The notes beneath the pieces were generated by a model. That model saw only the letters and a list, made by a program, of their open reading frames with translations, had not been told where the DNA came from and made no database searches. From assembly GCA_964374105.1 (NCBI GenBank), contig CAYJXI010000001.1:199743-263742 (forward strand): 64,000 nt of DNA, read 5' to 3'. The translations under genes were made by a program, and so were the position numbers. This DNA is from an uncultured Planctomycetales bacterium (lineage in GTDB: Bacteria; Omnitrophota; Gorgyraeia; Zapsychrales; JANLHA01). Shown in pieces: positions 9,001-46,228 of the stretch. Position 1 is the stretch's first letter. Each line of letters begins with the position of its first letter.

Positions 9001-12000
9001 ATTAAAGAAAGAGGAAGACGAACACCAGGCGGTCAATATCCGTATGGCCGAAGGGGTCGTTGAGAAGGTCATCGGAGATTATGACTACCTTTTGCCTTCC
9101 TATCCGATTCTTAAAGGTTTAGATGAGGTTTGGAAACGCCTTGAGCAGATTGAGCAGCAGTACGGGCGTATGTGGGATGAAAGCCTCAAGAACATAACGT
9201 GGAGGGGTGTCGAAGGAAGATTAAGAAATCTAGGAATTGATTCTCGAAAAATGAGGCTGGTGAAAGAAGTGTTCGATCGAGCAGATTTTAAGGAGGCGCG
9301 AAAGAGAGTCCGGGATTTACAGAAAGAAATGAGTCAAGTGCTAGAGAGGAAAATCCTGCAAAAACTAAAGACCGATCCCCGTTTAAGAGAACTCATAATC
9401 CTAGGAAAATGGCAGAGTGTGAAAGACGAGGTTGTCAGTATATTAAAGGAGATGGCCAAAAGCAGGAGCCAACTCAAGGCCACTTATGAGGTGGGTTATC
9501 CACTCCCCCGATTCCTCTTAGATGATGATGAGGAGGTGCATGATTTTAGACCTCTGGATGCCCTCATGGCGGGATTATTGGTGGCTATCTGGGTAGGGAT
9601 TGGGATTGTGGTTTCCACTCTCATTTTAGGAGCGGGGACATTAACAAATGCGATTATGATCTTGGGGATGGTTTATTTAGGCATCGCATTTGTCAAGTTC
9701 AATTTAATTTATGAGGTCGCTTTCCGGGCGATTGCCTTATGGAAGATGTCAGAGAAGCTAGGGATTCTCGATGAAATGAGACAGGGATTTTCTGAAAATA
9801 GAGAGAAGGAAATATTATCTAAACTGGCACCTCAGGAGATTCAAGAAATTAAAACAATCTCCATCGCCCGATCCGATGGGACCTTAACACCCGCCTTTGT
9901 TGCGTTAAGAGAGGATTGGTCTATTCCATCTTTATGGGGTAGAAATCATATTTATCGATATGTCAAAAATCAAATCCTCTGGCATGAAGAATTCAAATCG
10001 CATTGGGTGGGGCTCTTTATGATGGCCCCTGGGTTTAAGTGGATTTTAAACATAGGTCGATTCTTATTTGCCCTTCGAGCGATTATTCCTCAATTGGTTA
10101 TTGGGACGTTAACAATTCTGATCGGCCGGCAGATATTAAGCCTTTTGGGGATCAATGTTTCCTCTTTGTGGTCTTATTTTCTTATTGGTGCCATGATGAT
10201 CTTTAACCTTTGGCTGTATCATGATCTGACTTTCGTCTCCCGCAAATTAAAGGAACTCAAGAGAGGGAGTCAGATGGAACAAATTCTGGCCCTTGAGGCG
10301 CTTGAAAAGAAAGAACGTAAGTGGAGTAAACGGCTCATTAACACCCTTGGCGAGATTATTATCGATCAAGAGAGTCCGTATGAGGCTCGAGTAAAAGCCT
10401 TTGAGGTATTTAATCGCATGCTGATTCGAAATCCGCATTTCTTAACCAGACAGATGTTTGCCGACATTGTCGCAAGTTTTGGATTTTTTGATCTGCACAA
10501 TATGTTTACTCGCTTGTCACACTCCGTACCCTTTCATCTTTTTAAATTAGGGGAGATCCTGCAGGACTTGATTAATTACATTTATCAATTGGTTGAGCCC
10601 TTTAGTCGAAAATTCCAGCAACAGGTGTTACAGGTCTTTCAAGATTATTATCTTAGGGTGATGGTGCATTTACCAGAAGATATCCAGTATAAGGAAGTCA
10701 GCTTTATCAAAAGATTGATGGGAGAAGATTTGAAAGAGAAACGCAATCAAGGAGAAATTCTCTATCCATTAGAGACAATTAAAGCGGCCATTGCTATGAA
10801 GATTCAATTGCATAGGTTGCAAGATTTAGAGAATGTTACCCCTCTTGGCTTGGGGACAATGGAAAGGATCATCCAGTTTCTCGGCCAGGGTTATCCTCAA
10901 CAAACGCGGCAGTTCCTCGAGATGTTTGGTATCGATGAGTTTCTAAGGATTATCAGGGAAATTCACCAGACAGAAACCCATCGCCGCAAATCAGGGGAGA
11001 AGGTCGTGCCGTTGTCAGGCCAAGAATATTATGAAGAGATTCAAAAGAAGATCGAAGAGCGTTTAAGACAAAAGGAAGAGGGAGCTGCAACTGCCGGATC
11101 CATTTCTCATCTGCCAAAACGAGATGATCTGGATTATGCTTTCCCGCGTTGGCAATCTTATCAGTTATCATTGAGTGTCTTATTAATTTTATTGATGGGG
11201 TCGGCCTGGTTCCAAGAAATCCCTCTTTTACGTCCTTGGGGTGATTTGGGCTGGATGTTTCTCTTAAAAGTTTTACTTCCTGCATGGGTGAGTTATTATC
11301 TTACCCTACCATTCATCAATTTTATTCATGAATTGGGTCACAAGATTATTTTGAAGAAATTCGGAGTCAAAAGCAAAATTTGGCATGACAGCGAACGACA
11401 AATTTTGCGAACCCATCCTGACCCAGCCCAATTTGGGAAATTGTCTCCCAAGAAAAAAATTATTGTTTATCTTGGCGGTTTATTGGCCGAGTTTATTTTA
11501 TATTCATTGTTTGCGGTAGGGTTTGGTTTGAATCCATGGAATATGATGAACGGGTTATTATTATTCGCGCCGTTTAAAATTTGGTTAATAATGACGACTC
11601 TGATTGTAAGTATCGGTGTCTTATCGCAATTCCCGCCTTTCAGCCGATGGAATTCATTAAAGACGGATATAGAGAGGGTGTTAGAGGAGATTCGAAAGCT
11701 AAGCGGGGGCCCCACTTCGAAGGAGAAAGATCAGGAATCTAGAGACTCTTTCCTCAATAGTCCTTCTTTAAATAATCTTAACAATGGATTCTCTTTGAGC
11801 AATGACAAGGAAGACCAAGGAGACGGTGATCATGGGAAAAATAGAAAGCATACTCGTTATCTTAACCGAGGCTCAAGCGTTTCGAAATCGGAATTGATTA
11901 ATGCCTTGATGAAAAGAAACGGTAATCAAGACCGGGCAGCTAAGGACTTAAGTGTTACGGGGGGGACACTCTCTTGGCTCATCAAGACAAAATATAAGCT

Positions 12001-15000: not shown

Positions 15001-18000
15001 TGATCTTGATAATCAGTTTCCTGAGTTTGAAGACCTGGCAACGCTTTTAAAGAAATTCAGAGACTTCAATGAAAAGAAATGGACATTAACAATTGGCAAG
15101 AGAGGAACAACCGCGATTACACCAGTTGTCGGGTTTGGGGTTATCCAATTTTATTCCTTAAGGCCCGGAGTAGAATACAGAATCTTTATGTCCTGGCTCC
15201 CTTTTAGCGGTATTCGGATTTATTTTGGGCATCCGTCACACGTGGTGGCCTTTGAGGTCAATGCTTATCGAGAGCATGTCGATAAGAAAATAAAGAAAAT
15301 GACCCACATTGGCGATCGGGTTGATTTATTTAAGACAGAAGTTCCTGAAGAAGAATCCTTGGAATTGTTTATCTTAAAAGATTTAATTGGTGATTTGGTT
15401 AAGACAGAAGAAGAGTTTGGCTTACTTCTGGAATTGAGAAATGAAGAGACCGCTCAAAGGATGTTAAACGATCTCATTGCGGAGAATATCGTCGAGGAAC
15501 TGGATCTGGAACAAAAAGCAAAACCGTATGTTATTGAAGATATTCCTCCGGGAGTCCAATTGAGCCTTGAGAGGTATTTAGCGCGCTTAAGGCAGGAAGA
15601 AAGGGCTTATCAGGAATCAATTCAACGAAAAGAAAAGGAAGTCATCACTCCCCCCATCCCCCAGGAGGACGTTTACGAGCTTCTTCAGAAAGCAGAGGAC
15701 AAAATCATTTTGGAAGAGCCAGAAAAGGTTCGGCTCGAAATCGAAGAAATCCCCGCCGAAAAGATGGAGGAGTATAAAACACAAATAGAACAAGAGGTTA
15801 AGGAGAAAGATGAAAAGGAGAAAGAAGTTGTTCTGGAATACCCATCGTTGAGTGATCAAGAGATCTTAGAGTTTGTTCAGAAGATCATTGAAGATGATAT
15901 CACTCTTCAAGGAACAAGGCTCCATCATCCACAATGGCTTAAGTATTATCTTTTCGAAGGGATGTCCTCAAGGAAGATCAGCACGTTAGTGAAAACTTCA
16001 GACTCCAACGTTCGTCGCAGGATCAGAGAAGATAAAAAGCGTCTTATGACAATCATGCGGATCAAGTATGGAATATCACAAGAACGGATGAGGGAAATTT
16101 TTAAAGAAAAGGCGGATAGGTCACACTGGCCCAAGGAATATGACTTCTTAGAAAAAATTATTGGAGAGGAAATCCCTCGGGAAGCAACAAGGCTAGCGCA
16201 TCCAGAATGGCTTAAATTCTATCTTTTTGAGGGGAAGTCCTTCAAGGAGATTGCCCGGATTGCCAATACCTCAAAATCGAATGTGATTCAACGGGTAAAA
16301 AATGATGAGGAGCGTATTACCACGATCATGAGAATCCAATATGGAATATCGGAAGATCGGATGAGGGAGATCCTTAAAGAAAAGGCACAGAGGGCTCGCT
16401 GGTCTGTGGAATATGATTTCTTAGATCAAGTCAATGCCTGGTTGAAACAGCCCAACCAATTCCCATTACCTTATAAATTCAATTTGAAGGATACTGATCG
16501 CAATAGTGTCTTGGTATTCAATTTTCTAGGCATTCCTTACCGAGATTTAAAATTCGGCAAGATCAGTCCCAGGAATGATTTTGAATTTGGATATGTTTTA
16601 GAAGTTTTTAGTGAGGCAAACAAAGCAACAGAAGCATACCTCATTGCTGATCAACGTGGTCGAAGACCCCAAGTCTTCTCTGATGATGATTTGATGTTTC
16701 AAGGCAAGGGGGCAGATACCCAATTGCTCAAATGGGCCCTGGCGAAAAGTTTGGCTATCAATATCACTTGGGCCGCAAAACCACGAAAGATCCATAAAGA
16801 TTATTCAGGAAAGGATACAACTGGATCCATTGATCTTTTTGAGATTAAAGATGGCAAACTGAAACCCACCCGCGCGCGGCTGCCTCCCACATACACCTCC
16901 CAAAGGCCTCTTATCCCTTATATCAGTGCAGAAGAATTCACGACCTTTTTAGAAAAAGGCTATTCTGTGATCTTGCTTAAGGAACAAGGGACAACGAAGG
17001 TGGTCATGAGGGTCATCATAGGACGATTAAATAATCAATGGGTCGTTGAAACCGATTGGGAGGGTGATTATACGGACTGGAAGGAGAGCAGTATTCGTGA
17101 AAGAATTTTTAGTGACTTGCAGAAATTTTTTGAAGGACAAAGGCTAACGGTCCCGAATCTGAAGGATCTTGTTGTTAATTTCACAGAAAGAAAAGGAAGA
17201 AAAGTGGCAACCGCTTACTTGGGCGGCTTGATCTATCTAGGGACTCGCTATCCGCACATTTCCGTTCAAATCGGAATTTTGCGATCTGCGCCAGGGGAAT
17301 GGCTTTTGGGTTTATGGGAACCCAATCGGGATAAGAGATTATCCCAACCTTTTAGGATTTTAAAGAAAAAGGGTGATGTTTGGATCAATGTGAAAAATGT
17401 TAAGGTTCGATACTTGAACCAAAGGGATCTTCTGCCAAGGGCCAGCCTTCAGACACCGATCGAATTTTTAGAAAGATTTAAAGAGACTGCCCAAGGATCG
17501 CATTTCATGAAAAATGATTTCATTGAAGAGGTCAAGAGACAGCTTATGATTAACCGAACTTATATTTTGGAAATCCTGTCTAAGGTTCTCAAGCTGATCC
17601 CTAAAGAGCATGGGGCCGTTGAATTCCTGGCTCAGATTGTCCGCGAGGTCAATGATCCCATTTTGACCAATCATATTCAACTTTATTCCTTGCCTTACTT
17701 TGGGACAGCCCTGATGCGTCAGAGAAGTTACGATTGGGGAGAGGAGATTAACAAAATTTTGTATCCCCAGGGACGGAAAGGTGAACATCAGGGTAATCAA
17801 AAGGATAAGAAAAGGAAAAGTAGAAATAGAAATAAGGATAAACTCAACGACAGCAAAGATGATGAACAAAGAAATGGCGGCCCTCACCTGACTGACGGTC
17901 GGGGCGGCCCCCGCCAAGGCGGGGCAGGCCGCTGGCCGTGGATGGTGCCGGTGTATGAGGGAATTGGTAAATTGTGGCCACGTGGCCACAATTGGTCCTG

Positions 18001-21000
18001 GAGTGGAGAATTCATCAACTGGGTTGTTGCGTCAAGCTTGATTGAATCCGGGCTTTTTGTCGGTGGTGGGATGATTGCGATTTTGAAATGGGCCTTCGGG
18101 TTGCCACTTATTTTAGGGCCTCCGCAAGCATTGGTCATTGTCGTTTCCTTCTTTATTCTGCAGTTGATGTGGCATCTCCTTCACGGCCCAGAGGCTTTCA
18201 CCAAAGATAAAATTGCTATTTCAAGATTAGCGGTTATCATCCTTGCCTTAACATTAAGTCTTATCAGATTTTTTGATTTAACGGGTATTGTGTTCTTAAC
18301 AAGTATTGTGCTGGCCATCATATTGCCACATGCGGTTATTAATGCTTTCAGGGAAGGACAACAATTGAGCAAATTCAGTGCGGGAGGCGGATCCCAAGCG
18401 GGAAGAATTCATAAGGCATTACGAAGGTTTCCAAACACGAATTTCATTGGTACGAATAAAATCCCGGTCGTTGGTGGCGATATTTTGAATCTTATGTTTG
18501 GACATGAGGGCCAGGTTCAAAGAGTCATTGGCCATGAGTCCGTATTTTTTACTCATCAACTGGGCAGAATACAAGACGTTGCCGGTCAAATTCCAAACTT
18601 TAATATTCATTTTGGGGATGAGCGAAACAGCTTCAGCGGTTTTAGTAAGCTGTTGGATACATTTGGGATGATTTCTAAGATAAGTGACGGCTTTGCGGGG
18701 AGTGAGGTCAAATGCTTCAATTGCTTCAGCGATCATCAGCCGATGCCAAACCTCGGCAAGAACGATCACCGAGGTAAAACCAGGAATTTCTTTATTCTCA
18801 ACGCGGATAAGAAAGTCAGTGCAGGAATCGATAATCCCGAGAAAATGGTAAATGAAGATATTGGAATCAATGAAAATCGATTGACCCTCAGGAACCTTCG
18901 AGAGCATTTAACCTCCCAGGGGGGTGAAATGGGGAGATTCGGCAATGATTTTACCGAATTTATTGCGGACATGAATGATCGCCTTGGTAAGCCGGGCTTT
19001 GCTCTTTTCATTTTCAATAATGAGCTCTACCTTTTGGTAGTTGCGCAAAGGCAATTTCTTGAGGGGGCGGATAATGCCTTTTTCGTAGATGCCAGCAATT
19101 TTGATCATAATTCATCTCCTTATGCAGTTTCGAGTATAGCTTCTTCGAAGAAGAAAGTCAACCCCCAAAATCGGCGAAAACAAGAAAAGGTGAATCTCCT
19201 CTTTAAGCCCGAATGGACGATTTTCTCTGACGATTCACGAACCCCGAATCACGATTCCAAAGAAGAAGGCGGCCCCCGCCAAGGCGGGGCAGGCCGCTGG
19301 CCGTGGATGAAGAAATTTTATAATTTCTTTGGTCAAAGATGGATGGGCCAGGCCTTGATGCCTTCCTTGGTTGAATCCGGCGGTTTTGTGGCGGGGATTG
19401 ATTGGCTATTATCTCTTGTCTTTGGTTTACCTTACGATTTGAGTCCACCGCATCTAGGCCGTATTGGGATTCTGCAGTTGGTCTGGCATCTGTTGCATAT
19501 CCCACGAGGAAAACCAAAAGAGTCTGTCAGTCCCGCCAAGGTCAGCATAACGGTTGTCAGTTTATTGTTGTTAGGATTCCTGCCTAGTTTTATGAACTTG
19601 TCTTATATCTTCTTAACTATTTCTTTCATTCTGAATTTCGTACATTTTATTGTTAATCTGTTTAACCCATGGGAGGAAAGTCCACAAGGATCATCCCTAG
19701 GCGAAATCAATCCTTTTGGTTTGAAATTAAAGATGGTCCTGGGTGTAAGCCTTTTAGGGATGGTGTTCATGGGATCTCTGTACGTGATGGGGGGATTGGA
19801 TTGGTATCTTACCTTAAAGAATACGCTCATTGAAGGAAATCTTGTGACTTGGAAAGTAGCGTTCATAGATATGGTGACTGGCGCATTTCTCTGGGGTTTT
19901 GGAAATGTGATTGGGCAATATTTGGTCAAACACCCGGCCCGTATAGATTGGCGCCATAATCGATTGGTAACGGCCTTTGGTTTGGCCGGCGGGTTGGGGA
20001 CGCATGTCCTTTACAATTTATTAATGGGACTGGCCATTACCGGTGGAATCAAAAGGATGTTATTTATCCTTATGGGGGGACTCGTGTTGACGCTGTTATT
20101 TACCGTTTCCGAATCCCTGGCCCGACGGTTATTTAACATCAAAAAGTTTTCGGTTAAGGATGAGCAGGCCAAAACGCTTGATGTCCTGGCCATCAAATTC
20201 CTCATCGCCTGGCCGAAGTCCTTCATTGTCGCTAATCTCTTACCTTTACCGCTGCAGGTCATCAGTGAACAGATTTGGGATTATTTCTTGAAACCGGTCG
20301 AGTCCTATCTGATGAACCGGGACAAACCATTATTTGTTGAACCAATATTGCATCGAGTTGTTTGGCCGATGTACCTAAGGGTCAGTTCGGTAATAAACGG
20401 TTTGCAAAAATTATTCCTGGATGACCGAGGTGTCCAAGTGAGAAATTTTGTTCAGGAGTTGTATAGATTACAGCCTCCGCTGCCCATTTTAGATGAAACA
20501 GGTGTTGATCACCAGCGTTACCCTGGGGATCATGAATATTTTTCGAATTTTAAACAGCTGTCCACATTACCGCGGCATAGCACCCTTGGACAACCCGCTG
20601 TCTTTAGTCCATCCGAGACCACATTTTTCCTGATGGCGCATCTTCCTGTCCAAAAAGGGGACTCTGTTTTGGATGTCGGTACCGGCACCGGGGCGTTGGC
20701 CTTTCATGTCCTAAGGCAGGGGGCTAAAGAAGTGTTGGCCATTGATATTGATGAACACGCCGTAGCCACGGCCAGAGATAATGTCAAAGATGCCGGCTAT
20801 GCCAGGCGCATCAAAGTTCGGCAAAGCGATGTGTATGCCAATATTCAAAGAGAAGAAAAATTCGATCTTATCGTATCAGCGCCGCCGTTATTTGCCGAGG
20901 GACGACGTTCTGATCCAGCCATCTATGATGAAGGGTACCGGATGATAAGCAATTTAATCCAAGGTGCCGGGGAACATCTGCGGATAAATGGACGGGTGGT

Positions 21001-24000
21001 CTTTCTCCATTTAATCGGCTCTTATGGCGGCCTGATGACTACGGCCGAAGCGGCAGGGTTTGATTTAATAACCTTGGCGGTTTCCTCTAATATGCCGTTT
21101 GCCATTTACCAATTAACCAGAAAGAAAGATGACTTAAGTTCACTGATGAAGGAGGAAGGCCGTGAGCCTCAGAAACTAAAAGAGATTATCCGGATAAAGC
21201 TTGAAAATTTGCCTCTCCCATCCGCTAAATTTATTCTTGAAAATTTAATCCTGAAATCCACGTATCAAGACCCAGAGATCAAGAACTATCTTTCGGCTCA
21301 GGCGCGAATGGCGCTTTTGGCCAAGGCCTTGGCGGTTTCCCTGAAAAGAAAGGATGCAAATGAGATGGCCGTTTACCTTGAATCTCTCCTTAAGGAATCT
21401 CGCCATTTGATCCTACCTTCTGCACTAATGTTTATCCGTTCTTATTTAACCGTGTATTATCTTAAACAACCGCTAAAGCTTGCCTTTGTGATTCCTGTTT
21501 ACGGCGGACAGAAGGCCTTCTTGGATTTTAAGGATGGCGGAGAGGGCTGGTTGAGGTTCAAGGTTGATCAGTTCTTTGTAGAATTGTTATCGGTCAATCC
21601 AAAGGTCAAGGGAAATTTCATCTTTGTCAATGACGGAGATGATTCAGCCAAGACCGGAAGAAAAACTAGTGATGTGATCCGCGACCTCCTTAAAGATCCT
21701 TTTTATGACAAGGTGCGTGGACAGATCTTTGTTCTCGATCTGCCGCAGGAGACCAAGGTTAAGATGAAAGGAAAGAAACATAGTGCGGTTGCGGCGGGAA
21801 TGAAGTTTGCCTTGGAAAGAGGAGTGGATATTGTCATGTACACCGACCCGGATCTGGCCAGTCATTTGGGATTGAGTGGACTCTTGGTTGATTCTTTGAT
21901 CAACCGCGGATTTGACATGGCGTTTGGTTCGATTGAAATGAAAGGTTCAATTGTTCCTATTCGTTCATTCAAACGCCGTGTTGGGACTCTTGCTTATAGT
22001 CTTTGGGTGAGGATTAATCTTATAAGATACATTCTTAAAGTGAAAGATACCCAAAGGTCTTTCAAGGCCTTTAAACGAGAGATATTAGAGAAGATTATGC
22101 CTATTAGGAAAATGAGTGCTGATCAAAATGGGATCATCCAGCTTAAGGATTATGATCCCGATTTCCATTATGATTACACCGGTGACACCGAATGGATGGG
22201 GCGCGTGAAGATTGTGGGAGGAGGTTTAGAAGAATTCCCGATCGTTTGGATTGATTCACCGCAAACCGCCCAAACAAGTCTAAAGAAAGATGCCTGGCCG
22301 ATGTTTAAGGCCCTAACAGGGCAGAGAAGATCTTTAAGGAATTTTGCCTTAAAGCATTCTGGATTACGATCAACAAATCACGACCCGCAAAACAAGGGCC
22401 GTAACGACAAGGCGTGGGTCTTAGAGGATTTCCGGGATGCTCCCAAGCTCGAGGTTCGGGATGAGAGAAGTCTAGGCTTCGATCCTTGGCGAGATTTGAT
22501 TAAGGAAGTGGATACTTCTTTATTGAAAGAAGCGATTGGTTTGATTCAGCACACTGATGAATTCCCAGGGCAAAAGAGTTTGGTGAATATCCTTAAAGAA
22601 CTCATGAACTTTAGGCGGATCTTTTTTGCTAAGAACCTGCCTGGGATGTTTAGGGCCGAGCGACTCAATGAGGGAGCATATTTGATTTTGATCGATCAAT
22701 CATTGCATTGGTTATTTGGCGGAGCGGACTCTCTGATTCGTATCCGCAGTCCTTCCCCCCGTCAGAGAAAAGCCCTCTTAGCTTTCCTTGCGGCCAAACT
22801 TCTGCATGAGGCCGCGGAAATCCTTATGTCGAATCATCCTAAAGTGCATTGGCATTTGGATGAAAAAGATCCCTCCCTCACTACAACCGAACAGGTTGCC
22901 TACTGGGTTGAGGTGATTTTCTTAAGCCGTATCCCCGCCTTCTGGTTTGATTTTAAGAAATTCCTTAATCCCACAACCGTCTCTCCCTTATTTGTTCTTT
23001 ATGAATCTGTTTTTAGTGGGGAAGAATCTTTAGGCCGTTCCCCGGATCAATCTCCCAAGCCGTTAAGGCAGTTCCTGGCTACTTTAGGTTATCTGGCACC
23101 TTTACAGACTAAACTCTCCCGGGAACTTTTCAAACATATCCTTCAGCAGTTCGATGTTAATCTAGCGGAATTTGAAAGGCAAGAGAATCTTCGGGATTTG
23201 ATTGAATCCACCGTTGGTATTGCCGCGGCGCATTTTGATGACAGTCCCATCGGACGGTTAGCAACTGGAGTAATGATCAGCCGGGATTTTCTTATGACCA
23301 GTCTTCATGTTGTTGAGGATGAACAGGTACGGTTGCAGTCCTTTTTCAAGATTTATATGTTTGTCCCGAGGTCAAATGGCAACAGCCTTTTAAGTAAGAA
23401 ACCCAAGATGTCTGAAGCGAAAGTCGTGGCTATGCATCTCAACCAGGATTTGATGTTATTGAAGATCGATCCAGCCTCGATCCCGTCAGGGATTGTCTTA
23501 AGAGAAGTTAAGCTGGGGTATCAGGAGAGCTTGAAGGGAGGAATGCCGTTAATCATTTCCACCCTTCGTTCAGATGAAAAAGCGATTGATGAGAAGGCAC
23601 CGAGAATTCAGATCACCTCCACTTTGATTCCTCCTGTCGAAGAGGACCTCATTTATATGAAATTTGCTTCATGGAAAGGAGTGAGTGGCTCGCCCGTTGC
23701 TGAACGAGGTGGGCGCTTGGTGGGGATTTATATCGCGACTGAAAAATTAGGCATGAAAGATAAGGGTGTCGCGCATTCCATTGGGGCTGTGCGCAGCATG
23801 ATCGAGACATTGAAGATTCCACTGTCGCAGAGTCACGGCCGTTCAGCAGATCATAAAAGTGACAGTCACTCCCGCCATGGCGGGATGACTGTCACCTTTA
23901 GAGAAAAAATTAAGAAATGGTTAGTGAAGGCAATCGAATTTCAGGATAATATAATTCGAACATCACGAATTCCTATCTTTAAGTTTTTAAGGCTGCTATC

Positions 24001-27000
24001 TTTTGTCCTCAGGAGTTTGGGGAGACAGACGTTCAACCTGCCGTGGCTGGTTGAGTGGTTCTCATCCTGGCGTTTTCTTGGGATGGGAAAGATAGCGGCC
24101 TTTGTATTCAAAGAAAAAGGTGATCCCGCCAAGGCGGGATCACCTTTCCCCGCTGAGATATCAAAAGAGCAGCATGGATTCCTTGGGAATTTGGATCAAG
24201 ACCACTTAAGGAGTCTTCAAAGAATCGTTGAGTCGAATCGTGGTTTTGAATCCGTTAAGGAATTTAATCGTATCCTAGGTTCCTATTATGGGATTAAAGT
24301 CGAATTCTATTATTTCACAGACCCCTTCTCACGTTTCCCACCGACGCCCTTTGTGGCGGCTTTCCATCGCCAAACTCAACTGAGAATCTTTTTCTCCTCA
24401 GTTCATTTCTTGAATCAATTCAAAGTTCATTTTAGGAATCAGTTGTCTTCTGTTTTACAGTTGATTACAACCCATGAATATATGGAAGTGGTCCAAAGGA
24501 AATCTCACCAAATGGTTGATAAACAAACCAGCCAACTTTATAAAGACAGAGAGCAAGGCACCTTAATTCTGGAAAAATTAGACGAATTCTTTGGGACTAT
24601 GTACCTTGTCAATGCGTTTCTTGATTTGGAGAAATTGACGAGTCCTTATTGGAATGTCCGCAAGAAGACGCAAAGGCTGGCAAAAAAGGGCGGCCTTCAA
24701 GGGGCGGTTATCCCGGCAACAATGCTCATTCGCCATCAAAATAAGGATGGCCCTGAGGCCAAGGTAGTGGATGAAATGTTCCGTCAGGGTTGGCTTAAAT
24801 TTGTTCATTTAAGTGAAGAGGTTGTTTTATCCCACAATCCCAGGTATACCTATCAAGCTGTTTATTTGATTGATATCCCAGAGGAAAAGATGACAAGCCG
24901 TGATGTTCCCCTCAAAAGCCTTAAAGAATATCTTAAATTGGGAGAAGAATACCTTGGAGAAGAATCTTCTTTGGAGGAAAGAAGAGGCCGTTCGAAAGAT
25001 CGTTCCCGCCCCCTTCCCGGCAAAGACATGCCTTCAGCGGATGACATCAAAAAAGAGCTCCTGAGAGTTTTAAAACCTTATAAAAATGTCATTAACGAGC
25101 TGCCCCTCTTGAAGCCCAATAGCCCTGCGATGATCCAAGCATGGGCATTTTTAAAGAGAGATAAAGATCATCCCACTTTGGCACCTGCGCTTGAAACCTT
25201 TGCCAGAGAAGGCCGTATCCGGGCCGGGCCATTTGAAGGCTTCTTGGCTACAGTTTATCGAGTGAAGAAAGGAGGAGAATACATCCTTCTTTCCACCGCC
25301 TATCCGGAATTCAATTCCACCATCCAGAGAGCAGCCTCTCTTATTCATGAAATTGGTGCAGTCAGCCTATTTCATCTAGATCATCCAATGAATGAAAATA
25401 GAGAAAGGACCTATTTGACCGAGAAGGTCAGTGAGCTGATTTATGAACTTCAGTATCGCTCCACCGATGAGATGTTCGCTGACTTGGCGAATCTGCGTCA
25501 TTATTTTTCCGAGGGACATCTCGAGCAATTGATCCATTTAATCTTAATCCAAAAGGGTCTCCCTCAGAAAACAATAGCTTATATCATTGGGATTATCTCA
25601 AGTTTAGCCGAAGCTAATAGGAAGATATTTACACCGAAAAATTTAAAGGCGGTGCTGGAATTGCTGGCAGAGAAAGAAAAACATCCCATGATGGATCAAT
25701 TGATTCTATTGTTTAAGGATGCCAATCCACCGGCTTTCACAATCGAGAATCTGGCCTTTGTCATTGACTTCATATTGACTGTAATTGAATTCCAAGAAAA
25801 AATTGTCGAGGTTATTTACATTTTTAAAAAGATCAATCCTCTTTCATTTGACACAACGAATTTTAATACTATTCTTCCCCTGGCCGAGGAGGACCGGACA
25901 GAGGTGCGGGAAACCATGTTACGCGTGGCTAGGATCTTTAGAGAGGCGAATCCTTCCGTGTTTACTGCGGCTGGATTGTCCCAGCAGTTTGTCCGATTAA
26001 GGACAGAAACAGAAATGAAGTTTCTCATCAGTCGACTAAGGCTAGTGGCTATTTATTTTGAGGCGGATCAGGGATTAGCACAAGAAAAAATCTGGAATGA
26101 TTTATGGGATCTGCCAGTCATCTTGGAATATGATGATTATTTGGTTGCTTTCTATGACACGTTGGCCTCACTGATCAAAGCCAATCATACCATCGTTAGC
26201 GAACCTCATCTTGAAAGATCCATTGGCAGCTGGATCAATGATTTTACGGATCCGGGAGGGATGTTAACGGGTGGTGATGTAAAAGTGATCGCGGCAAGAC
26301 TTAGACTGTTGCATGTCTTTTTACGCGCTAACAAGACCTTGGCTACCGAATCTCGATTCGCCCGGGTGATGATTTATTTATCGCAGGGGCTCAGTTTTGA
26401 TCCTTTGATCCTTCGGACCAGTTTTGAAATCTTAAAGACGTACGCAGAAATAAATCCTGATCCTAAGTTTTTCTCAGAAGATCATTTGAGCATTGTCATT
26501 AAAAGTTTGGTTGAAGAAGTACCCAAACCGGGAGAATTCGAAAAGCCAAAAAATCCCCACCGAGTTGATATTGTCAAAATATTTAAAAACATCAACCCGC
26601 AATCATTTTCTTATAAAAATTTATTGGCAGTGATTTACTTTTTTGCTCAATCGGATGAACTGGTACGACAACAGGCCAGTCAGATATTGGACATCTTTAT
26701 TGAGGTGAATCATCATATTATAGACGATTCGATCTTACGGGCCTTGGTGGTGGTTAATTTGATCGCTGAGGAATTGTATTCCGAAGCTATTCAGGCAACC
26801 CAAAGAGTCAGGGGGCTACTAGGAAGGGAGCCTTTTGATATTCAAGATTATGATCTCATCGTAAGAAATTATCTGCCGTTCCTGGAAACCTGGGAAGAGA
26901 AAATCCGTGCGTATCAACGCCTTAAGGCAGGGGAAATAGAAGGATTTGATTTTAAGGCCTGGCGGGAATTTATATTAGACCTTACGAAAGAACAGGGGCT

Positions 27001-30000
27001 TGTCTTTGTTTGGCTTTTGGTGTGGGATATGTTGGAATTAAGAGAAAGAACTGAGATTCTGGATGATTTGCCTGTCCGAATTGATTCTTCGGCAGATCGT
27101 TGGGACATCGAACTGATATTCGGAAGAAAAGGGATCTTTGATGCTTTAAGCTCATTGGAAGTCCATGATCGGCGCAATGCACAGACAGCTGTTTTAAACT
27201 ATTTCGGCAAAATCAAATGGATTCAGAAACGCTTGAGCCGTGATCCGCGGATGAGTTTCTTATGGGAACTGGATGAGCCATCCTTAAGGGACTTGATTAC
27301 GATTATTAAAATTACCCATACCAATAGCACCTTGGTCTTTAATGCCATGACCATGGCGGAAGTTTTACCTGAGGAAATTAGAAGTCTCATTAAGGTCATT
27401 CCGTTTAATAACACTTTAACTGCGGTGATCAACCTTTTCGGTGAATATGCCAATTTCATCATGGATTTGCGCAGTAACGGCAAACTCAAATTTTTAATCG
27501 AAATGCTGACCTTTGTTGGTTTAGAGAAGAAACAATACTCGCTCACTCAAATTGAAGGGATCTTGGGCTATCTTGCTGAACACAGATCCAAAGTTCTGAG
27601 TTGGAGTAAAAAAGATTTTCAAGATTTTGAACTGGATTGGTATTCCTATTCAAAGGCCATCCCGATCTTCCATTCTCGCCTGTTTGAGTATTTTATTAAG
27701 TATCAAGCTCAGGAGCACCTGATTCAGCAAATGAGTCAGGATGTCCAGGAGGAATTATTGGGCATCGCTTGGGGCAAATTTAAAGGATTAAAGGGAAATT
27801 TGCGAAAGTATGGGATGACCGATAGGGATGAATTTGTTTTGCTGCAAAAATACATCCCAATCAAGGGATACGGGCCTACCATTTATGCGGATGTCTTTCA
27901 GAAGTTGACCGAGGCTGTTGAAACAAGAAAGATAACAAGAGAGGATGAACCAGAATCTTATCTCTTAGATCAAATCCTTTTGGTGAGAGGAGAACGGGAG
28001 ATCAGACATCTTAAGGGATCAGAAAAATTGAATGATCAATGGATGGATCAGATGCTGAAACTTTTTGCTGAGCCGCCAGCGGAAAGTTTGTCTTTATCAG
28101 AGCGTATAAGTCAATATCTTAAGGAGGGTCTCTGGTCTAGAGAGCTAATGGAGCAGTCGGCGATCATGTGGCTGTTAGCAAAACCCACCTACCAAGAACG
28201 GTTGTCGAAATTAAAGAACAGATTAGAACAATTTGATCGTTCTGATATGACTTTGCAGATCGAAAGCTATCTACAATTGATGGAGGATATCCAAGTTTTC
28301 CTCTCGGATACCTGGGAAAATGATTTAAGGGATGCCCGCAGTCAACTCCTCAAAGAAGTGGTGGAAAAAGAAAGAAAGGCGGGTTTAATTAACTTATCAA
28401 CGGGTTTAGGAAAAATTGCTGTTGTCAAAATGCCCCGGAAGAAACTGAAAGCGGTCTTTGCAAAGATTGCATTGCCCTTTGATACCCTTTCTTTAAGTCA
28501 AACATGGGCCCAGGAATTAGGTCTAACGTTGTGTGATAGGAATTCTCTGAAGCGGCTGAAGGAAGAATGGAAAGTCAAAATGATTGAGTACATTATTTCA
28601 ATCTTTAAGAAAGAATCCAAAGGGGAGGTGGCCGAGGAGACTAAGGCAGCAATTAATGAAGCTTTTGATCTTATGATTTCAAAGGAAGAAGAACGAAGAA
28701 GCAAAAATGAGTTAACCAATGAAGAAATCCAAAAGATAACTTTAGATTTGGAAAGAAATTTACGGGAGATATTTAAATCCAAAGTTCTGTTATTGGAAGA
28801 AGAGACGCAGAAATTTGAGACTATCACACTTCCGGGGATGGGGAATACGGTGGTGATGGGACTCTTTGGGGATCCCTTGAATTTGATGTATTGTCAGGGA
28901 GAATGTACTTTCCGCGATTGGCCAAGGGCGATCCTTGATCAAAGATACTTTTATATGAAGTTATTGATTAAAGAGCCCGGGGTGGAAAGTGGAGGGCGTG
29001 TCTTAGGGGGAGCGCAAGTACAATTTTTAAAAGAGACAATCAGAGAAAGAAAAGTGAAAAGGATGCCCCGGGGTTGGGCGATTTTGAGTTTACCAGGGAT
29101 CAATATGGACGAAGGGATCGATAAGTATGGGATCGGAAAGCGCCAAGGGATAAGGTTCCTGTTAGAATTTGCCCAGCGGTTAGCCGAGGAAACCGGACTC
29201 CAAGGAGCAGTCATCCCCATCGATATTTTGATCCGCCACCAAAATTCTGAAGGACCCGAGGCAAAGGTGGTTGAAGAACTGATTCAAAAGGGGTGGTTGA
29301 AACCGGTCAAGTTGAGTTCAACCGTGGAACTAGCCCCTAAAACAGAATTCAATAATCAGTATACTTACGAAGATGTGTATCTAATAGATATTCCTAAAAA
29401 CGAGATGATGACAAAGGAGACACCTTTTTCAAATCTCAAGGAATATCTGGAAAGGGAGGAACAAACACCGTCCCTTGTTGCCAATCTTCCCGGGATCGGG
29501 GTGTGGATGCGGGTCTTATTGGCAGGGGGAATCTTGCCGCATGAGTTAGGACACCTCATCGTTGGGCCTCAAAAGGGTAGAAGGTTAGATTACGGCTTAA
29601 GGAGAATTCTGAAAGGCCTTTTCTATGCTATGCCCTGGCCAACCCGAGGGCCGCCGGCCTTGGTTGGTCTGGCGGTGAATCTCTTCTTGGCGGTTGTTTT
29701 AGGGCTTTTGATCTGGTCAGGTTTATTGAACTTTGGGTTTACATCGAATTCTTCGGCCTTTCTCTTCTACCTCTTTATTTCCAGCCTTATCGTATTTCTT
29801 TTGGAAATCCTGCTCACCCCATTTGCGGAAAGCTTAAAGATAAGCCGATTTGCGGATTTAAGACAGATGAAAGGTGATCCCGCCATGGCGGGATCACCTT
29901 TTTATATCCCAGGGCCGCTGCGAGTGTTCAACCGACCGTGGCTTCCTGCACCACACAGGGTGCAGGACCATGAACCCAATTCCGTACCACATAGGGTACG

Positions 30001-36000: not shown

Positions 36001-39000
36001 TAGGGAGCGCCATTGGCAGCATCGTTATCAGAACCAGTTACAGGGAATACTGTCATCGATAGAAAAGCGATTGAAGAAGGCCCGTTTGTTGAGTCAAAGA
36101 CAGAGCGTTTATGACCTTTCTGCGGAGGAATTGCTTAATCTGATTGAGAGGTACCGCCACTTAGACCCCCACCGCGCTAAGGCGGGCCTGCCTGCCGGAC
36201 AGGCAGGGAATCAATTGCCAAAAACAGAGCCGGAGCGGGAAGAGGCGATCCAGCAGGAAATTAGCGGCAATCGACCCCTATTTCTTGAACAGAGTCAATA
36301 CGTTCTCGAGGCAAATAAGGAAGCGAAAGAATTGGTGGGAGAGAAAGATCGGGATATTGTACGATCTTTAGAGCAGATGTCTTCTATGGAAATTCGCGCC
36401 GGGCCGATGCCGAATTTGTGGAGTGTTGTTCGGGAAGTGTCGCTTGTGAAGCGTGAAGCGTTAGGAGAAAAACGAGATACGAGTCCCGCCTCACGGGAGA
36501 CGAGATATGTCCTCCACCTCGATCGATCCCTCTTTGATTCCGCTAACCGCCATGAACTTCTTCTCACCCTCATCCACGAAGCAGGTGTCCTTCTGGGCCG
36601 AAGCGATGAAGACAATGAAAAATTTGCCCAGAAGGTTTTGGGTGATTTTGGTATAGAGAAAATTCATTTGCATTCATTAAAAGATATTGGAAAAGTTGAC
36701 CAATTGGTCAAAAAGATTAAAGAGCTCATTCAAAGTGGCTACTGGAAAAATGTTTTTGAGCTTTTAATGGAACATCTTGGCAAAGATCCAGAAATTGATT
36801 CAAGGTTGATAAGGGATGCTATTGAGTATGCATTCCGCGAGACTGCCTTGAAGTTATATGGGAATTTTATTCCTACCAAATTTATTCAGGCAGCAGGGGG
36901 TTTTCTGTTGAGGCTTACTCGGAAGGCTACAAAAGAAAAAAGGTATGATGTCTTGAGGGCTATCCTGGAACATTATGGGAATTCTTGGTCTAACAAAGAT
37001 TCTGGTGTGAAAAGATTGATTCTCCAAGAAGAGCCAGCCCTGTGGCCACTCCTTTATATTTTCGATATGGTAATTAAAATTTTAAAGAAAGATGATCCAA
37101 CATCTCACCCAGAGATCTTCGAGCATGTTCTTCCTTTCATTATCGATGTATTTCCACCCAAGACACTTTATTGGATTAAAACTCGACGGATTACTAGAGC
37201 ACCAGGATTCATAACATCTGATGATCGATTTGAGTCGAAGGAGAGTCCCTTTGTGCAAAAAATGGTTGAATTGTTTAGTCTGCTTGCTGAAAAGTATCCC
37301 GCTCATCCTTTATTACATTTGGCTTTAGAGAAATACATTGGTCTGCGAGAAAAGGTACAGGAGCAATTACAAAGAAAAAGTAGACTGATGGGGCCGTTTC
37401 GAGCGTTAGCTACATTGTTAGGTTTTAGGAGAGAGGGAAAGTCTTTGGAAATTCAAAGGTCTTTCACACTAACACCTGAAATGCAATCTCTTCTTCCTCG
37501 GATTGAATTGAAACCAGAAGAGATGAATTTAATATTAGATCAGAAAAGAGACATCGAGGAAACAGCGGTAACATTTTTGAAAACATGGGATGATTTTGTT
37601 ACGGCCTTTCAAGTCCTTTATAAGGCTCTACGTGATGAGACCTTGCGGATTTCTTATGATTTTGACGTGGAGGGCCGGCATACCCAAGGAGGGAGAATCA
37701 TTGAGAAAGCCTATCACGAAGGATGGATTCATGATACAGGTTTCGAGGCCTATATTCACCTTCCGGTCGGGATTCAGATACCTTTGAAAAAATGGTCAAG
37801 TATATCTGATTATAATTGGTGGGATGAGTATCATAAGCCTCTACGATATTATTTGAATTATTCTTTAGATATGGAAAGAATTCAGGAATTATTCCAAGGG
37901 CTCACATTCTCTGGTCTAAAGATAGGGGATCGTCTGGCCGAAGACGAAATTTGGGATGAGGGAATTATATGGGCTATGCTGGACAATAAGTTTAATGAAC
38001 AGTTAAATACAGTTCGCACTTTGAGAGAAGAATTAATTCGGTTAGCTATCAAACTCGAAGCCGTCAGTACAGGTCAGACAGAGGAAGAAATACGGAATCA
38101 ATACGATGGGAGTGCGTTGGTTAGAAAATGGCTTAAGAAATTTGGGATTCATGTTCGCGAGGCTAATAATCTTGATTTTAAGAAATTGACTTTTGATAAA
38201 TCTGCACAAACTGAAGAATCTTCAAAAGGTGATGAACAATCTGAGGATGATCGTGAATTCACCGATCCCCACCGCGCCAAGGCGGATAACAATCTGCCGA
38301 AAGATCCGGTTGAGCGCGAAGAGGCGATTCAGAAGGAAATCGCCGGTACTCAGAAATTGACGGGCTCCCAAAGGCAATACGTACTCAACGCTATCTGGCA
38401 AGCTCTGAAACTGGCCAAAGAAGATCAAGAAATCGTCCGCTCGTTTGAAGAGATGGTCAAAATGGAAATCCGCGCCGGGCCGTTTAGGTATATTTGGGGC
38501 ACCATTCGTACATTGTACAGCGTACTTCGTACGTCGAATGAACCGGGAACTTTACGAAGTACGATGGACGAAGTACGATGGACGTTATTCCTCGATCAAT
38601 CCCTCCTTGATCCTGTCAATTATCGCGAGCTTTTAATCACTCTCATTCATGAAGCCGGAGTCCTTCTGGGAAGAAGTGATGAAGATAACGAAAAATTCGC
38701 GCAACAAGTCATCCCCATTTTAAGCCAACCGGCCCAAGAACGGATCCTTGAGATGGTTCGAAAGTACTTCCTCTATCGAAAACCATTGAAGGATGAAGAA
38801 ATTATCCAACTTATCGGGTTTATTTCAGCTCAAATTCAGGTTCCTGTTGAAGAGCATGGCAAAGCTGTTCGTGAAATGCTGGCAGAGATAGTCAGGCATG
38901 ATCTTTTTGAACAAAACAGGTTCAATAGGATTTTAGAATTGGCAGGAATTTGGTACGAGCATTTTTATGTATTTTCAACTGAAGCGCAGGAGCCGAGAAC

Positions 39001-42000
39001 AAGAGGTTTAGAGTCAGTGCTTTTTGTGGACCAGCCAGCAGCCAAAAAAGAGTCAGTCAATCCTATCAAAGCAGCGCGTACTTTGAAAGAAAAAGGCGTC
39101 TCTTTAAAAGGATTAGAGCGAATGATTGGTTATTCCCGATTCGTTGTAGCTGTAAGGCAAAAGGAAACAATCGAACATCACAGTTCTTACCATGTCAAAG
39201 AACGAGAAAGAAAGAGCCAAGGCGATTTAAAACGATTGGAAGTCGTTCGATATATTTACAAAGCTGAAAGGTTTAAAGACGTAGAGATTGGCTCGTTAGA
39301 ATTGGGATTAACATCTGAAGGGATTGCTCTGGTCGCAGGTACGGTGTTCAATCAATTAGAGCGTTACCGGCAATTCAAGCCTGACCGGTTCAAAATTATT
39401 TTAGACACAATGAATGAAGTGTTTAAGATTTTTGTCCCAGAGGAAGGGATTTACGGCGAGGCATATCTCCGTTCAATGGGAGAGGTCATTGATCAGTTGT
39501 TAAAGCAAAGGGATTTCGGAAAAGAAGTCAACGACATCTTGGCAGGCGTGGCTTTATGGAATAAAGAGCTGCGTGGGCGGTTTAATCAATGGCTCGAGTA
39601 TCAAAAAGAACCCACAAAATATGTTAATCCAATCCTTGCTCTTGCCGCTCGGAATATTCCTGTATCTCAGCTGCAAGCTGTCATCAATTATTTAAGGATC
39701 AAACTGGGAGAAGTTCAGAATATCTTCTTCTTATTTTTAGAGCTGCGAGCGCAGAGTGATTCAGGTATTACAAAATCGCAAACAGCCAAAGAGCAGATGG
39801 ATGCATTCGAAGGAACTTCGCAGGCGGAAATTGAATTTGTCAAAGCCTTATTGGCAGCCATACAGGCACGCAAGCAAGAAGGAGACAATCTTGAATCCCG
39901 TGGATCCCCCGATCCCCACCGCGCCAAGGCGGGGAATCATCTGCCGGAAGATCCGGTGAAACGCGAGGAGGCGATTCAGAAGGAGATTGCTGGGAATCAG
40001 AAGATCCCCGATAAGGTAAGAGAATATGTGGTACGAGTTATCAGAGAAGCCCAAGGGATCGTGGGCAAAAAGGACCGAAAAATCGTCAGGGCCCTGGAGG
40101 AGATGGCCTCCATCGAGATCCGCGCGGGACCGTCGTTGAACTTGTGGGGAGTTATCCGTAATAGGTCAAAGGTCAAAGGTCATAGGTCAGTGGAAAATCC
40201 TATGAGCTATGACCTATCAGCTATGAGCTCCCCAGCTATCAGCTCTTCGGCTGAAGTTAACATAAAAAGGGACAGTCCCTTTTTATGTCAACCTGTTCTC
40301 TTCCTCGACACTTCCCTCCTTGATCCCGATAACCACCAGGAACTTCTCATCACCCTGATCCACGAAGCTGGCGTGCTCTTGGGCCGCGGCGACAAACGGA
40401 ATGAACGATTTGCCCAGCGGCTCTTTAAGACCCCCGCGCCTTCCCTGAGCTGGCACGCCTTCAAAACAGAGTTTATAAAGTATCCTTTGAAGAGACAGTT
40501 GTTCATGTTGACAGGTTTCATCACTGAGGTTGTGGGAATATTTCTGGGAAGCCAATTGTTAGTCCTTGCCGGGATAGGGGTCCTTATTCCCTGCGCGGTC
40601 ATCATGGTTCGATCGGCCATCAAACGTGAGGACATGACCCGCACCCTTTTAACCCAATGGATTTTAAAAAATATATATTTGAATGAGTTCTCAAGTCAGC
40701 ATTTGATGGACCTCAACGCGGTGATTCGATTGCTTGCCTCACTTGGGAAATTAAACCTCGAACTTAAAGAAGCGCTTCTCCATGACCTGCTGGAACGCTA
40801 CGCGTTAAGAAAACCAGGAAAATTTAATTTAGATCATCTTGATCAACTGACCCGTCATTTTGAACCGAAGGGATTGGTTCGTTATTTTCTATTTTATTTG
40901 TCGACCCGGCCCAAGGTCGCGGCTCAAGTTCGTTTCATGGTCAAGCAGTGGATAGAAGAGAACAAGCTCTTCCCCTTACATTCCGTCATCAAGAACAATC
41001 TTTCCATCGGCCCCAAAAAGGTTCTGGTGATTCACAACATTGCCGACGGAATGGGGGATGAGTTGATCCGTGTCGGGACATTGGTCCAGGCCTTATTAGA
41101 CTTCAATCCTGAATTAACGGTCACCATTATCACGACTAGAGATTACCTTTATGATCACTCCCGCGTGCGGCTTGATGTCGATGGCGAGCTCAAGGCATTG
41201 GAGCATGATTATGATGTCGTGGTTCATTACTACGACAAAAAACAAAGATTTTCCGATGTATTAGAAAAACGCGTTCAAGATTATCTGCAGACGCACCCTA
41301 AGATATTTCTGTATATTAGAGCCGACAAAGCCACCGATCTGTTTACCTTTTCTGAAGTCATTGTCGATCAGAAAGAGTACGCGGATGAGCTTAAACTCAA
41401 CCAGCCGCGAGGGAATCATCTGGCCTTCTCTAATAATGTCTATGAACCAATCTTTCGGTTTTTGGCTGAATTGGGGATTCCCTTCCGCGTGGGCGAGGAG
41501 GAACCGCAAGGTGAGTCGTTGTGGATTGGGAAACCCAATCCTGAGGCAGAGATTTTTTGGCAGGATGGTCTCAGCGCGTTCCGCAAGTTACAGGGGAGGT
41601 CTCAAGGAGACAATCGGCCGGTTGCCTTATTTATGCCTTTTGGAGGGATGCATCCCAGCAAGGGAATCGATGCTCTTGAGCCTGAGTCTCTCTACCTCTT
41701 CCTCACAATGGTCAGGCACCTCATCAGTAAGGGTTATGACATTATTATTATTCCCAATGGAGAAACGTGGGGATCTTCAGAGATTGCCGTCGCCATTGTT
41801 GAACGGCTTTTTAATCATGAGGAAAAGACGCACATCATCATAGGTCCGGAACCCAGGGAAATCCCCAGAGACCTCAAATATCTAATTTCCTACTCAGACT
41901 ATAATTTATTCTTTGAAGGGGGCATGGTTCATTTAGCCTATCATCTGGGATGTCCGTATCATTTTCTAACGATGCCCGGTTCAGGAGTTTTATCAAAATG

Positions 42001-45727: not shown

Positions 45728-46228
45728 GCCCATGACCCGCACTTTGACCAAATCCGCAAAAATGCCTTTAATGGTGATGATCCCCAAAGATCACAAACCC
45801 AATCTCCCAACGACCCCCACCGCGCGAAGGAGGGCGACCGTGTTGAGACAGACCATCCTTTAAGACCAATCAGCCAGCTGGGCGCCGTTTTGTGGCGATT
45901 TTATCAGCCTCGGGTGGCATGGGGATTTTTAAGAATTGCCTTTTCAACGACCGTGGCGAATTACCGGCACCTGCGCCATCACGGTATTCGCGGGGCGCCA
46001 CTGGGACGAATCCAAGCCGCACTCCGCGCGCCCTTCTTCAAAACCGCCGAACGTATTGACGGCCTGCCGCGGTGGAATATCGACCGCCATCTCCTCCCCG
46101 AAGATATCCAGCGCCTCGTTGACATCCACGAATCGCAACCCTGCTGCCGCTTGGGTAACCGCGAGATGGCGATAACCATTCAGAAAAGGGAAAGCAGACA
46201 ACGATCTAAAGAAAATTCAGCAGATGTC
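45728..46228 (+). other. Junction between the two giant ORFs. The single in-frame TAG (45725-45727) is followed by 54 stop-free in-frame codons that include a DPHRAKEGDR motif copy (45812-45841), then a ~400-bp GC-rich (~60%) block, before AT-rich ORF2 proper (an in-frame ATG is at 46229).
   Basis: Frame arithmetic: positions 2, 45725, 45812 and 45890 are all 2 mod 3. The GC-rich block shows ORFs on both strands in the provided track. Confidence 0.6.

Follow-up and report, generated by a model that had tools for sequence, protein, structure and literature searches.

A VapBC toxin-antitoxin cassette nested head-on and in register within giant open reading frames of Omnitrophota

How can a gene of exceptional length accommodate a complete operon on its opposite strand without losing its own reading frame? 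This question is raised by a stretch of 64,000 nucleotides from an uncultured Planctomycetales bacterium placed by GTDB among the Omnitrophota (GenBank assembly GCA_964374105.1, contig CAYJXI010000001.1, positions 199,743 to 263,742 of the forward strand), the whole of which is referred to below as the window. Its + strand carries an open reading frame (ORF) of 15,241 codons, from position 2 to position 45727, devoid of any in-frame stop. A vapBC toxin-antitoxin (TA) operon is contained in this giant ORF on the opposite strand, and about 9,300 codons of the giant frame remain downstream of it. The first-pass annotation of this sequence had already pointed out that the giant frame stays open across the operon, and this is confirmed here; the other two + strand frames contain 13 and 28 stops across positions 18360-19320. 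The answer that is developed below, and that is considered probable with some reservation, is that the operon would be a selfish 'ambigrammatic' VapBC cassette, tolerated by giant genes as ribosomes can read across it.

The anatomy of the nested operon is that of a regular TA module. On the - strand, vapB (18908..19108) encodes an AF2212-like antitoxin of 66 aa and is followed by vapC (18419..18907), which encodes a PIN-domain toxin of 162 aa. The assignment of a PIN toxin and of a DUF104-like antitoxin, first made by eye, was borne out by hidden Markov model (HMM) searches of Pfam, with E values of 1.9e-12 for PF01850 (48 bits against a cut-off of 23.6) and of 5e-8 for PF01954, the former DUF104. 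Both genes are in the same frame, the TAA stop of vapB directly abutting the ATG of vapC, and the TAA stop of vapC is read as a TTA leucine codon in the + frame. The control signals announced for this operon were also recovered on the - strand: a Shine-Dalgarno (SD) sequence, AAGGAG (19116..19121), is located 7 nt upstream of the vapB ATG, and the best promoter of the region (19133..19161) is sigma-70-like, with TTGACT (19161-19156) and TATACT (19138-19133) separated by 17 nt and 10 matches out of 12. The spacer of this promoter includes a perfect 12-nt palindrome, TTCTTCGAAGAA (19141-19152), which is a candidate operator.

The identity of the toxin was examined further at the structural level. 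An AlphaFold (AF2) model of VapC was built from 11 sequences (pLDDT 93.9, pTM 0.88) and its best Foldseek matches in the PDB are the VapC toxins of Shigella, Klebsiella, Rickettsia and M. tuberculosis. In the 11-sequence VapC alignment, the residues D14, E52, D128 and D149 are invariant, together with N146, as expected from the conserved acidic active site of PIN domains. A PDB search at the sequence level gave no match with VapC and only a weak match with VapB, to AF_2212. The score of VapC against NCBIfam TIGR00028, the Mtu_PIN_fam VapC subfamily, is 13.1 bits for a cut-off of 73.6. Judged by these matches, VapC can be classed with the PIN toxins of VapC type taken broadly, and falls outside the TIGR00028 subfamily. 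The module itself is a VapBC-type TA module in the broad sense, since every defining feature that could be tested is present. The antitoxin-first order of the two genes, their abutting stop and start, the PIN fold with its conserved acidic residues and the palindrome in the promoter are all shared with the VapBC type II systems, among which the pairing of an AF2212-like/DUF104 antitoxin with a PIN toxin is common in archaea and uncultured bacteria. The difference lies in the location and the coding of the operon, which is entirely contained in another gene, antisense to it, and is recoded in such a way that its reverse strand is free of stops.

The coding nature of the + frame around the operon is demonstrated by a duplication within the giant protein. 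A multi-transmembrane module, A1 (17903..18382, + strand), ends at the operon, and its paralogue A2 (19268..19750, + strand) is found on the other side. The resemblance of these modules holds for their protein sequences (34% identity, E 3e-25), so that the + frame is truly protein-coding to either side of the operon. A1 and A2 are each headed by one copy of a perfect 42-nt GC-rich direct repeat found twice for 0 expected: R1 (17903..17944, + strand), translated as GGPRQGGAGRWPWM, and R2 (19268..19309, + strand), placed 1365 nt (455 codons) after R1. A single ORF longer than 10,000 codons with evidence of coding along its length corresponds to the definition of the Omnitrophota giant genes (West-Roberts et al. 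2023, bioRxiv 10.1101/2023.11.21.568195; 2026 preprint, 10.64898/2026.06.07.730766), and the host ORF fits this description by its length, its many membrane segments, its scattered enzymatic domains and the paralogy that flanks the operon; the closest relatives of the operon are moreover all found in Omnitrophota genomes, which places the window in this phylum indirectly. Antisense, nested, PIN or TA genes inside giant genes are mentioned in neither of these two papers.

The coexistence of both coding units depends on their relative register. As claimed in the first-pass annotation, vapB, vapC and the giant frame share their codon boundaries (the lowest coordinate of each codon is equal to 2 modulo 3), which corresponds to the antisense -0 frame. 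In this register each stop of the reverse strand corresponds to one whole sense codon, TTA, CTA or TCA, for which synonymous alternatives exist. None of these three codons is found among the 230 codons of vapB and vapC, which include 22 Leu and 13 Ser, when 8.6 antisense stops would be expected in the cassette under the codon usage of the giant gene (P(0) = 10^-4.4, or about 4e-5). Openness extends to the region's 65 non-coding codons, for which its chance probability is about 0.02. The host ORF is thus uninterrupted because the vapBC lineage avoids TTA, CTA and TCA completely. Two other causes of this avoidance were rejected. These codons are not absent genome-wide, since all three are used by the giant gene (TTA 3.0%, CTA 0.6% and TCA 0.9% of codons; (TTA+CTA)/Leu = 0.30 and TCA/Ser = 0.15). 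High-GC ancestry as the sole cause does not hold either, for a cassette with a GC3 of 0.44-0.52 and third positions near saturation. The AT-richness invoked earlier is for its part only moderate in this sequence, with a GC content of about 43%. Shared codon boundaries and an avoidance of TTA/CTA/TCA exceeding the effect of composition, two attributes of an ambigrammatic overlap, are both present.

This arrangement is not restricted to one locus. The DNA of the closest VapC relatives, 52-65% identical, was fetched and was complemented by a genome scan using one genome per species, which returned 80 genome loci. The family is widespread and made of proteins of about 162 aa; its free-standing members always sit behind an AF2212-like gene with stop abutting start, and this junction is also observed in all nested copies. 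In four independent contigs of about 1 kb originating from other samples (L001, L006/L007, L008 and L169), no stop interrupts the codon-aligned antisense frame from one end of the contig to the other (305-369 codons), against 10-31 stops in the other frames. The closest matches of the genome scan are four Omnitrophota genomes, L089 (Hainich-Omni-XXI), L090 (single-cell genome AM-311-K22), L091 and L150, the last with a partial copy, in which the antisense frame is open across the whole fetched locus of 15.9-20.5 kb. The register is the same in all nested copies. For each locus, zero antisense stops are observed for 8.6-12.5 expected (P(0) from 10^-4.4 to 10^-6.6), and the combined P(0) over the four long loci reaches about 10^-23; pooling eight copies gives 1,828 codons (181 Leu, 128 Ser) without a single TTA, CTA or TCA. 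In a neighbor-joining tree, the ten stop-free copies form one clade, whose free-standing sister homologs have 2-12 antisense stops. Among 144 more distant homologs (archaea, Nitrospirota and others), the median is about 5 antisense stops in vapC alone, and the 5 that have none are mostly of high GC content.

Pairwise comparison of the five giant ORFs (window, L089, L090, L091 and L150) delineates the cassette precisely, as it is the sole segment that they have in common. It covers 786 nt on the - strand of the window (18383..19168), with the promoter at one end and some 35 nt beyond the stop codon of vapC at the other, and corresponds approximately to residues 6128-6389 of the giant protein, the reading of which in the giant frame includes '...MVNEDIGINENR...'. 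The antisense stretch of 1.3 kb proposed by the first-pass annotation must be shortened accordingly, 1365 nt being the spacing of the flanking 42-nt repeat. Outside the cassette, over about 3,300 residues to each side, no similarity between loci is found at E < 1e-3, and the sequence and domain content of these flanks looks unrelated. No other recognizable antisense gene is nested in the five giant ORFs: ten of their longest antisense ORFs have no significant Pfam match, with the exception of a decayed PIN domain in L150. A codon-aligned - strand ORF of 173 aa in the window (17468-17989) was likewise rejected as a nested gene, its openness being compositional, opposite a stretch rich in K, R, D and E.

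The antisense translations were also used in alignments to search protein sequences. A word-indexed search returned nothing, and an exhaustive HMMER search returned 10 matches, mostly fragments. One of the proteins examined in this respect, P0064, is a partial giant protein of 5,223 aa from a high-GC source, in which residues 2685-2905 align with the antisense translation of the cassette at 25% identity (pairwise E 3e-15); a second stretch of similar appearance near residue 3700 is below significance. The phenomenon may extend past the low-GC clade. A different situation is encountered at L171 (ENA ERZ27245622 k141_18763, GC 57%), where an intact, more distant vapBC (9999-11116; VapC 39% identical) converges on a giant ORF, no shorter than 3,932 aa, and is located immediately after the TAG stop of that ORF. 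The antisense frame of this vapBC is an open ORF of 371 codons, the GTG start of which overlaps the stop of the giant ORF by 1 nt (TAGTG). This locus may represent an intermediate state, one frameshift away from engulfment.

Which of the two strands is selected, and for what? Comparing eight nested vapC genes two by two gives mean differences that rank as third (0.57) > first (0.31) > second (0.21) codon positions in the vapC frame. Because substitutions follow the vapC frame, VapC is judged to be under purifying selection at the protein level. The translation of the same DNA in the giant frame is only about 33% identical, versus about 60% for VapC, and the giant frame over the cassette is, on this evidence, selected only for staying open, a pattern to be expected of a stretch crossed by ribosomes on their way to the rest of the giant protein; the codon avoidance persists although third positions are near saturation. 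The promoter is kept in 7/7 nested copies for which upstream sequence is available (9-11 of 12 matches), as is the SD. The - strand encodes a maintained and probably expressed operon, as indicated by the retention of promoter and SD together with the purifying selection on VapC. Selection on both strands, postulated initially from the window, is supported by this purifying selection, by the stop-free antisense frame and by the recurrence of the arrangement in ten cassettes.

The following scenario would account for these observations. A type II TA cassette of about 790 nt, with its own promoter, an AF2212-like VapB and a PIN VapC, would be lodged head-on within a giant ORF, probably of an Omnitrophota bacterium. 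No orientation and register other than this one would allow an ORF to take in a whole operon and still keep its full length. Indeed, an insertion in the sense orientation would bring its own stops, and with either of the remaining antisense frames the stops straddle two codons and would not all be removable by synonymous changes. Ribosomes translating the giant mRNA would read through the cassette to reach the 9,300 or so downstream codons, producing a poorly conserved insert or loop of about 260 aa between membrane modules, and selection acting on the giant protein would purge antisense stops from the cassette. The latter would be primarily a selfish addiction module, able to persist since it is 'transparent' to the host ORF. 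Its imprecise loss would be doubly penalized, either by a frameshift in the giant gene or by the release of the toxin. As plausible by-products, the giant gene would be stabilized against deletion, and both units could regulate each other through antisense or transcription collision.

The alternative raised in the first-pass annotation is a functional coupling of the two units. The host would then have recruited the nested TA module as an addiction device guarding the 45-kb gene, or as a regulator operating by antisense pairing or polymerase collision, with transcription of the giant gene silencing vapBC and so freeing VapC, or the reverse. TA cassettes are known to stabilize large gene arrays, a full head-on overlap guarantees the complementarity of sense and antisense RNAs, and the arrangement persists across deep divergence within giant ORFs. 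The distribution of the cassette is less favorable to such a functional coupling: it was found in just 4 Omnitrophota among the 80 genome loci returned, in unrelated giant ORFs and at non-homologous sites. A decayed cassette is also informative in this respect. In the Omnitrophota metagenome-assembled genome JBDRIY010000058.1 (L150, 9998-10420), only vapB and the first 61 residues of VapC remain, with a PIN match below threshold (E 7e-4), and despite this decay no stop has appeared in the host giant ORF along the full 20 kb. The openness, and not the TA module, therefore appears to be what the host needs. Sporadic distribution, non-homologous positions and a decayed copy fit a passenger merely tolerated by its host, and functional coupling is for these reasons regarded as unlikely, albeit the most serious competitor.

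A further alternative dispenses with any mobility. The cassette would result from a single ancient insertion, followed by vertical descent, and the surrounding giant genes would have diverged or been shuffled past recognition. The monophyly of the stop-free copies is in line with this history, as are the poor conservation of giant proteins in general and the absence of a detectable homolog of the window flank anywhere. It is difficult to reconcile with the pair formed by L005 and L006, which are about 88% identical in nucleotides across the cassette and whose similarity is lost in the background no more than about 25 nt past the stop of vapC. Because the similarity ends so abruptly, the cassette is considered to have changed context recently. 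The complete difference in domain content on both sides of the cassette between loci is another objection. The direct repeats of host coding sequence that bracket the cassettes, always spaced by a multiple of three, provide additional elements: besides the perfect repeat of the window (42 nt, 100%, at 17903 and 19268, spacing 1365 = 455 x 3), spacings of 792 and 1845 are found in L091 and L089, and L090 has a repeat of 117 nt, spaced by 903 and encoding a duplicated transmembrane segment. The copies of the latter are 91% identical, so that this repeat is far younger than the divergence of the cassette from its relatives. A single immobile insertion is on the whole improbable, and the cassette would seem to relocate. 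The mode proposed here with low confidence is a frame-preserving recombination within giant-gene sequence, which would keep orientation and frame and leave in-frame direct repeats behind.

Several points nevertheless weigh against a selfish, relocating cassette and temper the preference given to it. The cassette holds only vapB and vapC, without any recombinase, terminal inverted repeats or att-like/attC-like site, and does not qualify as a mobile element in the classical sense. The flanking repeats differ in kind between loci, and some of them are dispersed elements of the hairpin or repetitive extragenic palindromic (REP) type. The monophyly of the clade is also compatible with one ancient insertion combined with reshuffled segments of giant genes. 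The L005 copy is apparently at the edge of a long antisense ORF, or outside it, yet stop-free. The first-pass annotation had proposed to compare related giant genes with and without the cassette: the first half of this comparison yielded cassettes in unrelated giant ORFs, and the second yielded no empty-site ortholog of the giant gene of the window, a search just downstream of the cassette (aa 6417-7000) giving two marginal methyltransferase matches. Finally, that vapBC is transcribed, that ribosomes translate the giant ORF across the cassette and that VapC is toxic are three points that we infer from sequence.

The last two alternatives question the very existence of a nested operon. A vapBC pseudo-operon swallowed by the giant ORF, with - strand ORFs surviving by chance as dead cargo, would explain why the gene callers behind the public protein collection did not call vapB and vapC. 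The exact VapB and VapC sequences are indeed absent from this collection of 15 billion proteins, whereas the MutS encoded by the same contig is present; this absence is also consistent with gene callers dropping genes nested in a longer ORF. Such a relic is very improbable, as the codon-position pattern follows the vapC frame and not the giant frame, as full-length ORFs, catalytic residues, promoter and SD are retained in each clade member lying complete on its contig, and as L150 shows for comparison what genuine decay looks like. A chimeric assembly, joined at the 42-nt repeat, comes to mind for an uncultured genome in which a perfect repeat brackets the region, and hardly deserves credence when the same nested open arrangement exists in independent assemblies of other samples, including a single-cell genome, and when a chimera would explain neither the total absence of TTA, CTA and TCA nor the in-frame spacing of 1365. 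Given this recurrence and the substitution pattern, both an assembly artefact and a dead pseudo-operon can be considered effectively excluded.

The selfish ambigrammatic cassette can be compared with several known systems, and the initial impression that a fully nested antisense module was without precedent proved too strong. In the ambigrammatic narnaviruses, a reverse ORF lies opposite the RNA-dependent RNA polymerase gene in a -0 frame left open by the avoidance of UUA, CUA and UCA; the reverse protein is poorly conserved and its translation is required (bioRxiv 10.1101/2020.12.18.423567). The device is the same, an antisense -0 frame kept open by codon avoidance, with selection on openness. 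The narnaviruses are however RNA viruses of eukaryotes, with a reverse ORF lacking known protein homology, when the present case concerns cellular DNA, a complete bacterial operon with its own promoter, and an open frame that is part of a host giant gene, itself bona fide coding sequence before and after the operon. Long antiparallel ORFs are also common opposite conserved genes such as dnaK (Moshensky & Alexeevski, bioRxiv 10.1101/724807). Stops are there too avoided opposite a conserved gene, and the antiparallel translation is not itself under strong purifying selection; these ORFs are nevertheless stand-alone 'shadows' of doubtful function, whereas the cassette occupies a slice of 786 nt in an ORF of 45.7 kb, the downstream part of which offers a ready reason for the openness. 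In Shigella flexneri 2a, set1A/set1B (ShET1) is found on the strand opposite pic/she and is likewise a two-gene unit facing a large gene, but it is confined to one locus in one species group, is not a TA system and is not known as a mobile cassette in unrelated host genes. The Rickettsia palindromic elements illustrate how selfish DNA can be tolerated inside protein-coding genes when the reading frame is kept. They are short non-coding palindromes, in contrast to a protein-coding operon carried by the other strand.

Other features of the window and of its relatives concern the composition of giant genes in general. In-frame GC-rich hairpins built on the core CCCGCC-AW-GGCGGG occur at least 8 times in the giant ORF (13 matches for 0.67 expected), at 23858-23895, 24112-24142, 29866-29900, 36175, 38275 and 39922, as well as at 17903 and 19268; the R1 hairpin, with the core CCCGCC-AA-GGCGGG, is a member of this dispersed family. 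Some hairpins consist of a perfect 15-bp stem followed by a T-run, for instance AAAGGTGATCCCGCCATGGCGGGATCACCTTTTT, which is the textbook form of an intrinsic terminator and is translated as KGDPAMAGSPFY in the middle of the ORF. These elements could be insertions resembling miniature inverted-repeat transposable elements or REPs, or else relics of intergenic terminators left by gene fusions. The 42-nt repeat was rejected as a consistent terminator, its T-rich tail (- strand) being limited to R2 and its folding no better than that of shuffled sequence. Translated repeat elements with SSP motifs on their flanks, such as 'GAVVANWLTVHSSRFTE' and 'LLCRQHSGTVPCGDSPYNGFLAMT', are scattered throughout the giant protein of L089; at this locus a REP-like hairpin with a T-run directly follows the vapC stop, and another one is found 1845 nt upstream.

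The C-terminal third of the giant protein in the window (36100-45700) includes several repeated modules opening with 'DPHRAKAG...' or 'DPHCAKSW...' and continuing with 'EREEAIQKEI(A/S)GN ... MEIRAGP ... LITLIHEAGVLLGRSDEDNEKFAQ', an organization that suggests a growth by tandem duplication of modules. The next gene (45890-52798), also very large, is on the same strand after a gap of 160 nt, and its product of 2,302 aa carries an Rce1-like CAAX protease domain. A second assembly (L172: GCA_947085705.1, CAMTXN010000015.1) carries a MutS identical to that of the window (54891-57467); its 22.7-kb contig breaks within the 2,302-aa gene beside the giant gene, the region of which is fragmented in that assembly. 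Scans of the window with Rfam, for tRNAs and with the PADLOC defense models were all negative.

Examples of two genuine protein-coding units overlapping in antisense over a long distance are few and contested in prokaryotes. The comparative evidence is unusually clean in the present case, with purifying selection on the protein of one strand and a strict stop avoidance on the other, replicated in ten copies of independent origin. It indicates that giant genes can harbor complete, independently promoted operons on their opposite strand, and that a TA module can evolve the 'ambigrammatic' coding previously described for narnaviruses. Such cases do not show up in protein databases, because gene callers systematically leave nested genes out. 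The end-to-end translation of giant ORFs also gains a handle, as peptides from residues 6128-6389 would prove the read-through, and the opposition of a TA promoter to a 45-kb gene offers a natural system for the study of head-on transcription. More tentatively, and somewhat beyond what we would wager on, this TA lineage may have specialized for life in giant ORFs and represent a new class of 'ORF-transparent' cellular selfish elements, spreading between giant genes by frame-preserving recombination and possibly shaping the stability and the expression of the largest bacterial genes known through head-on transcription and addiction.

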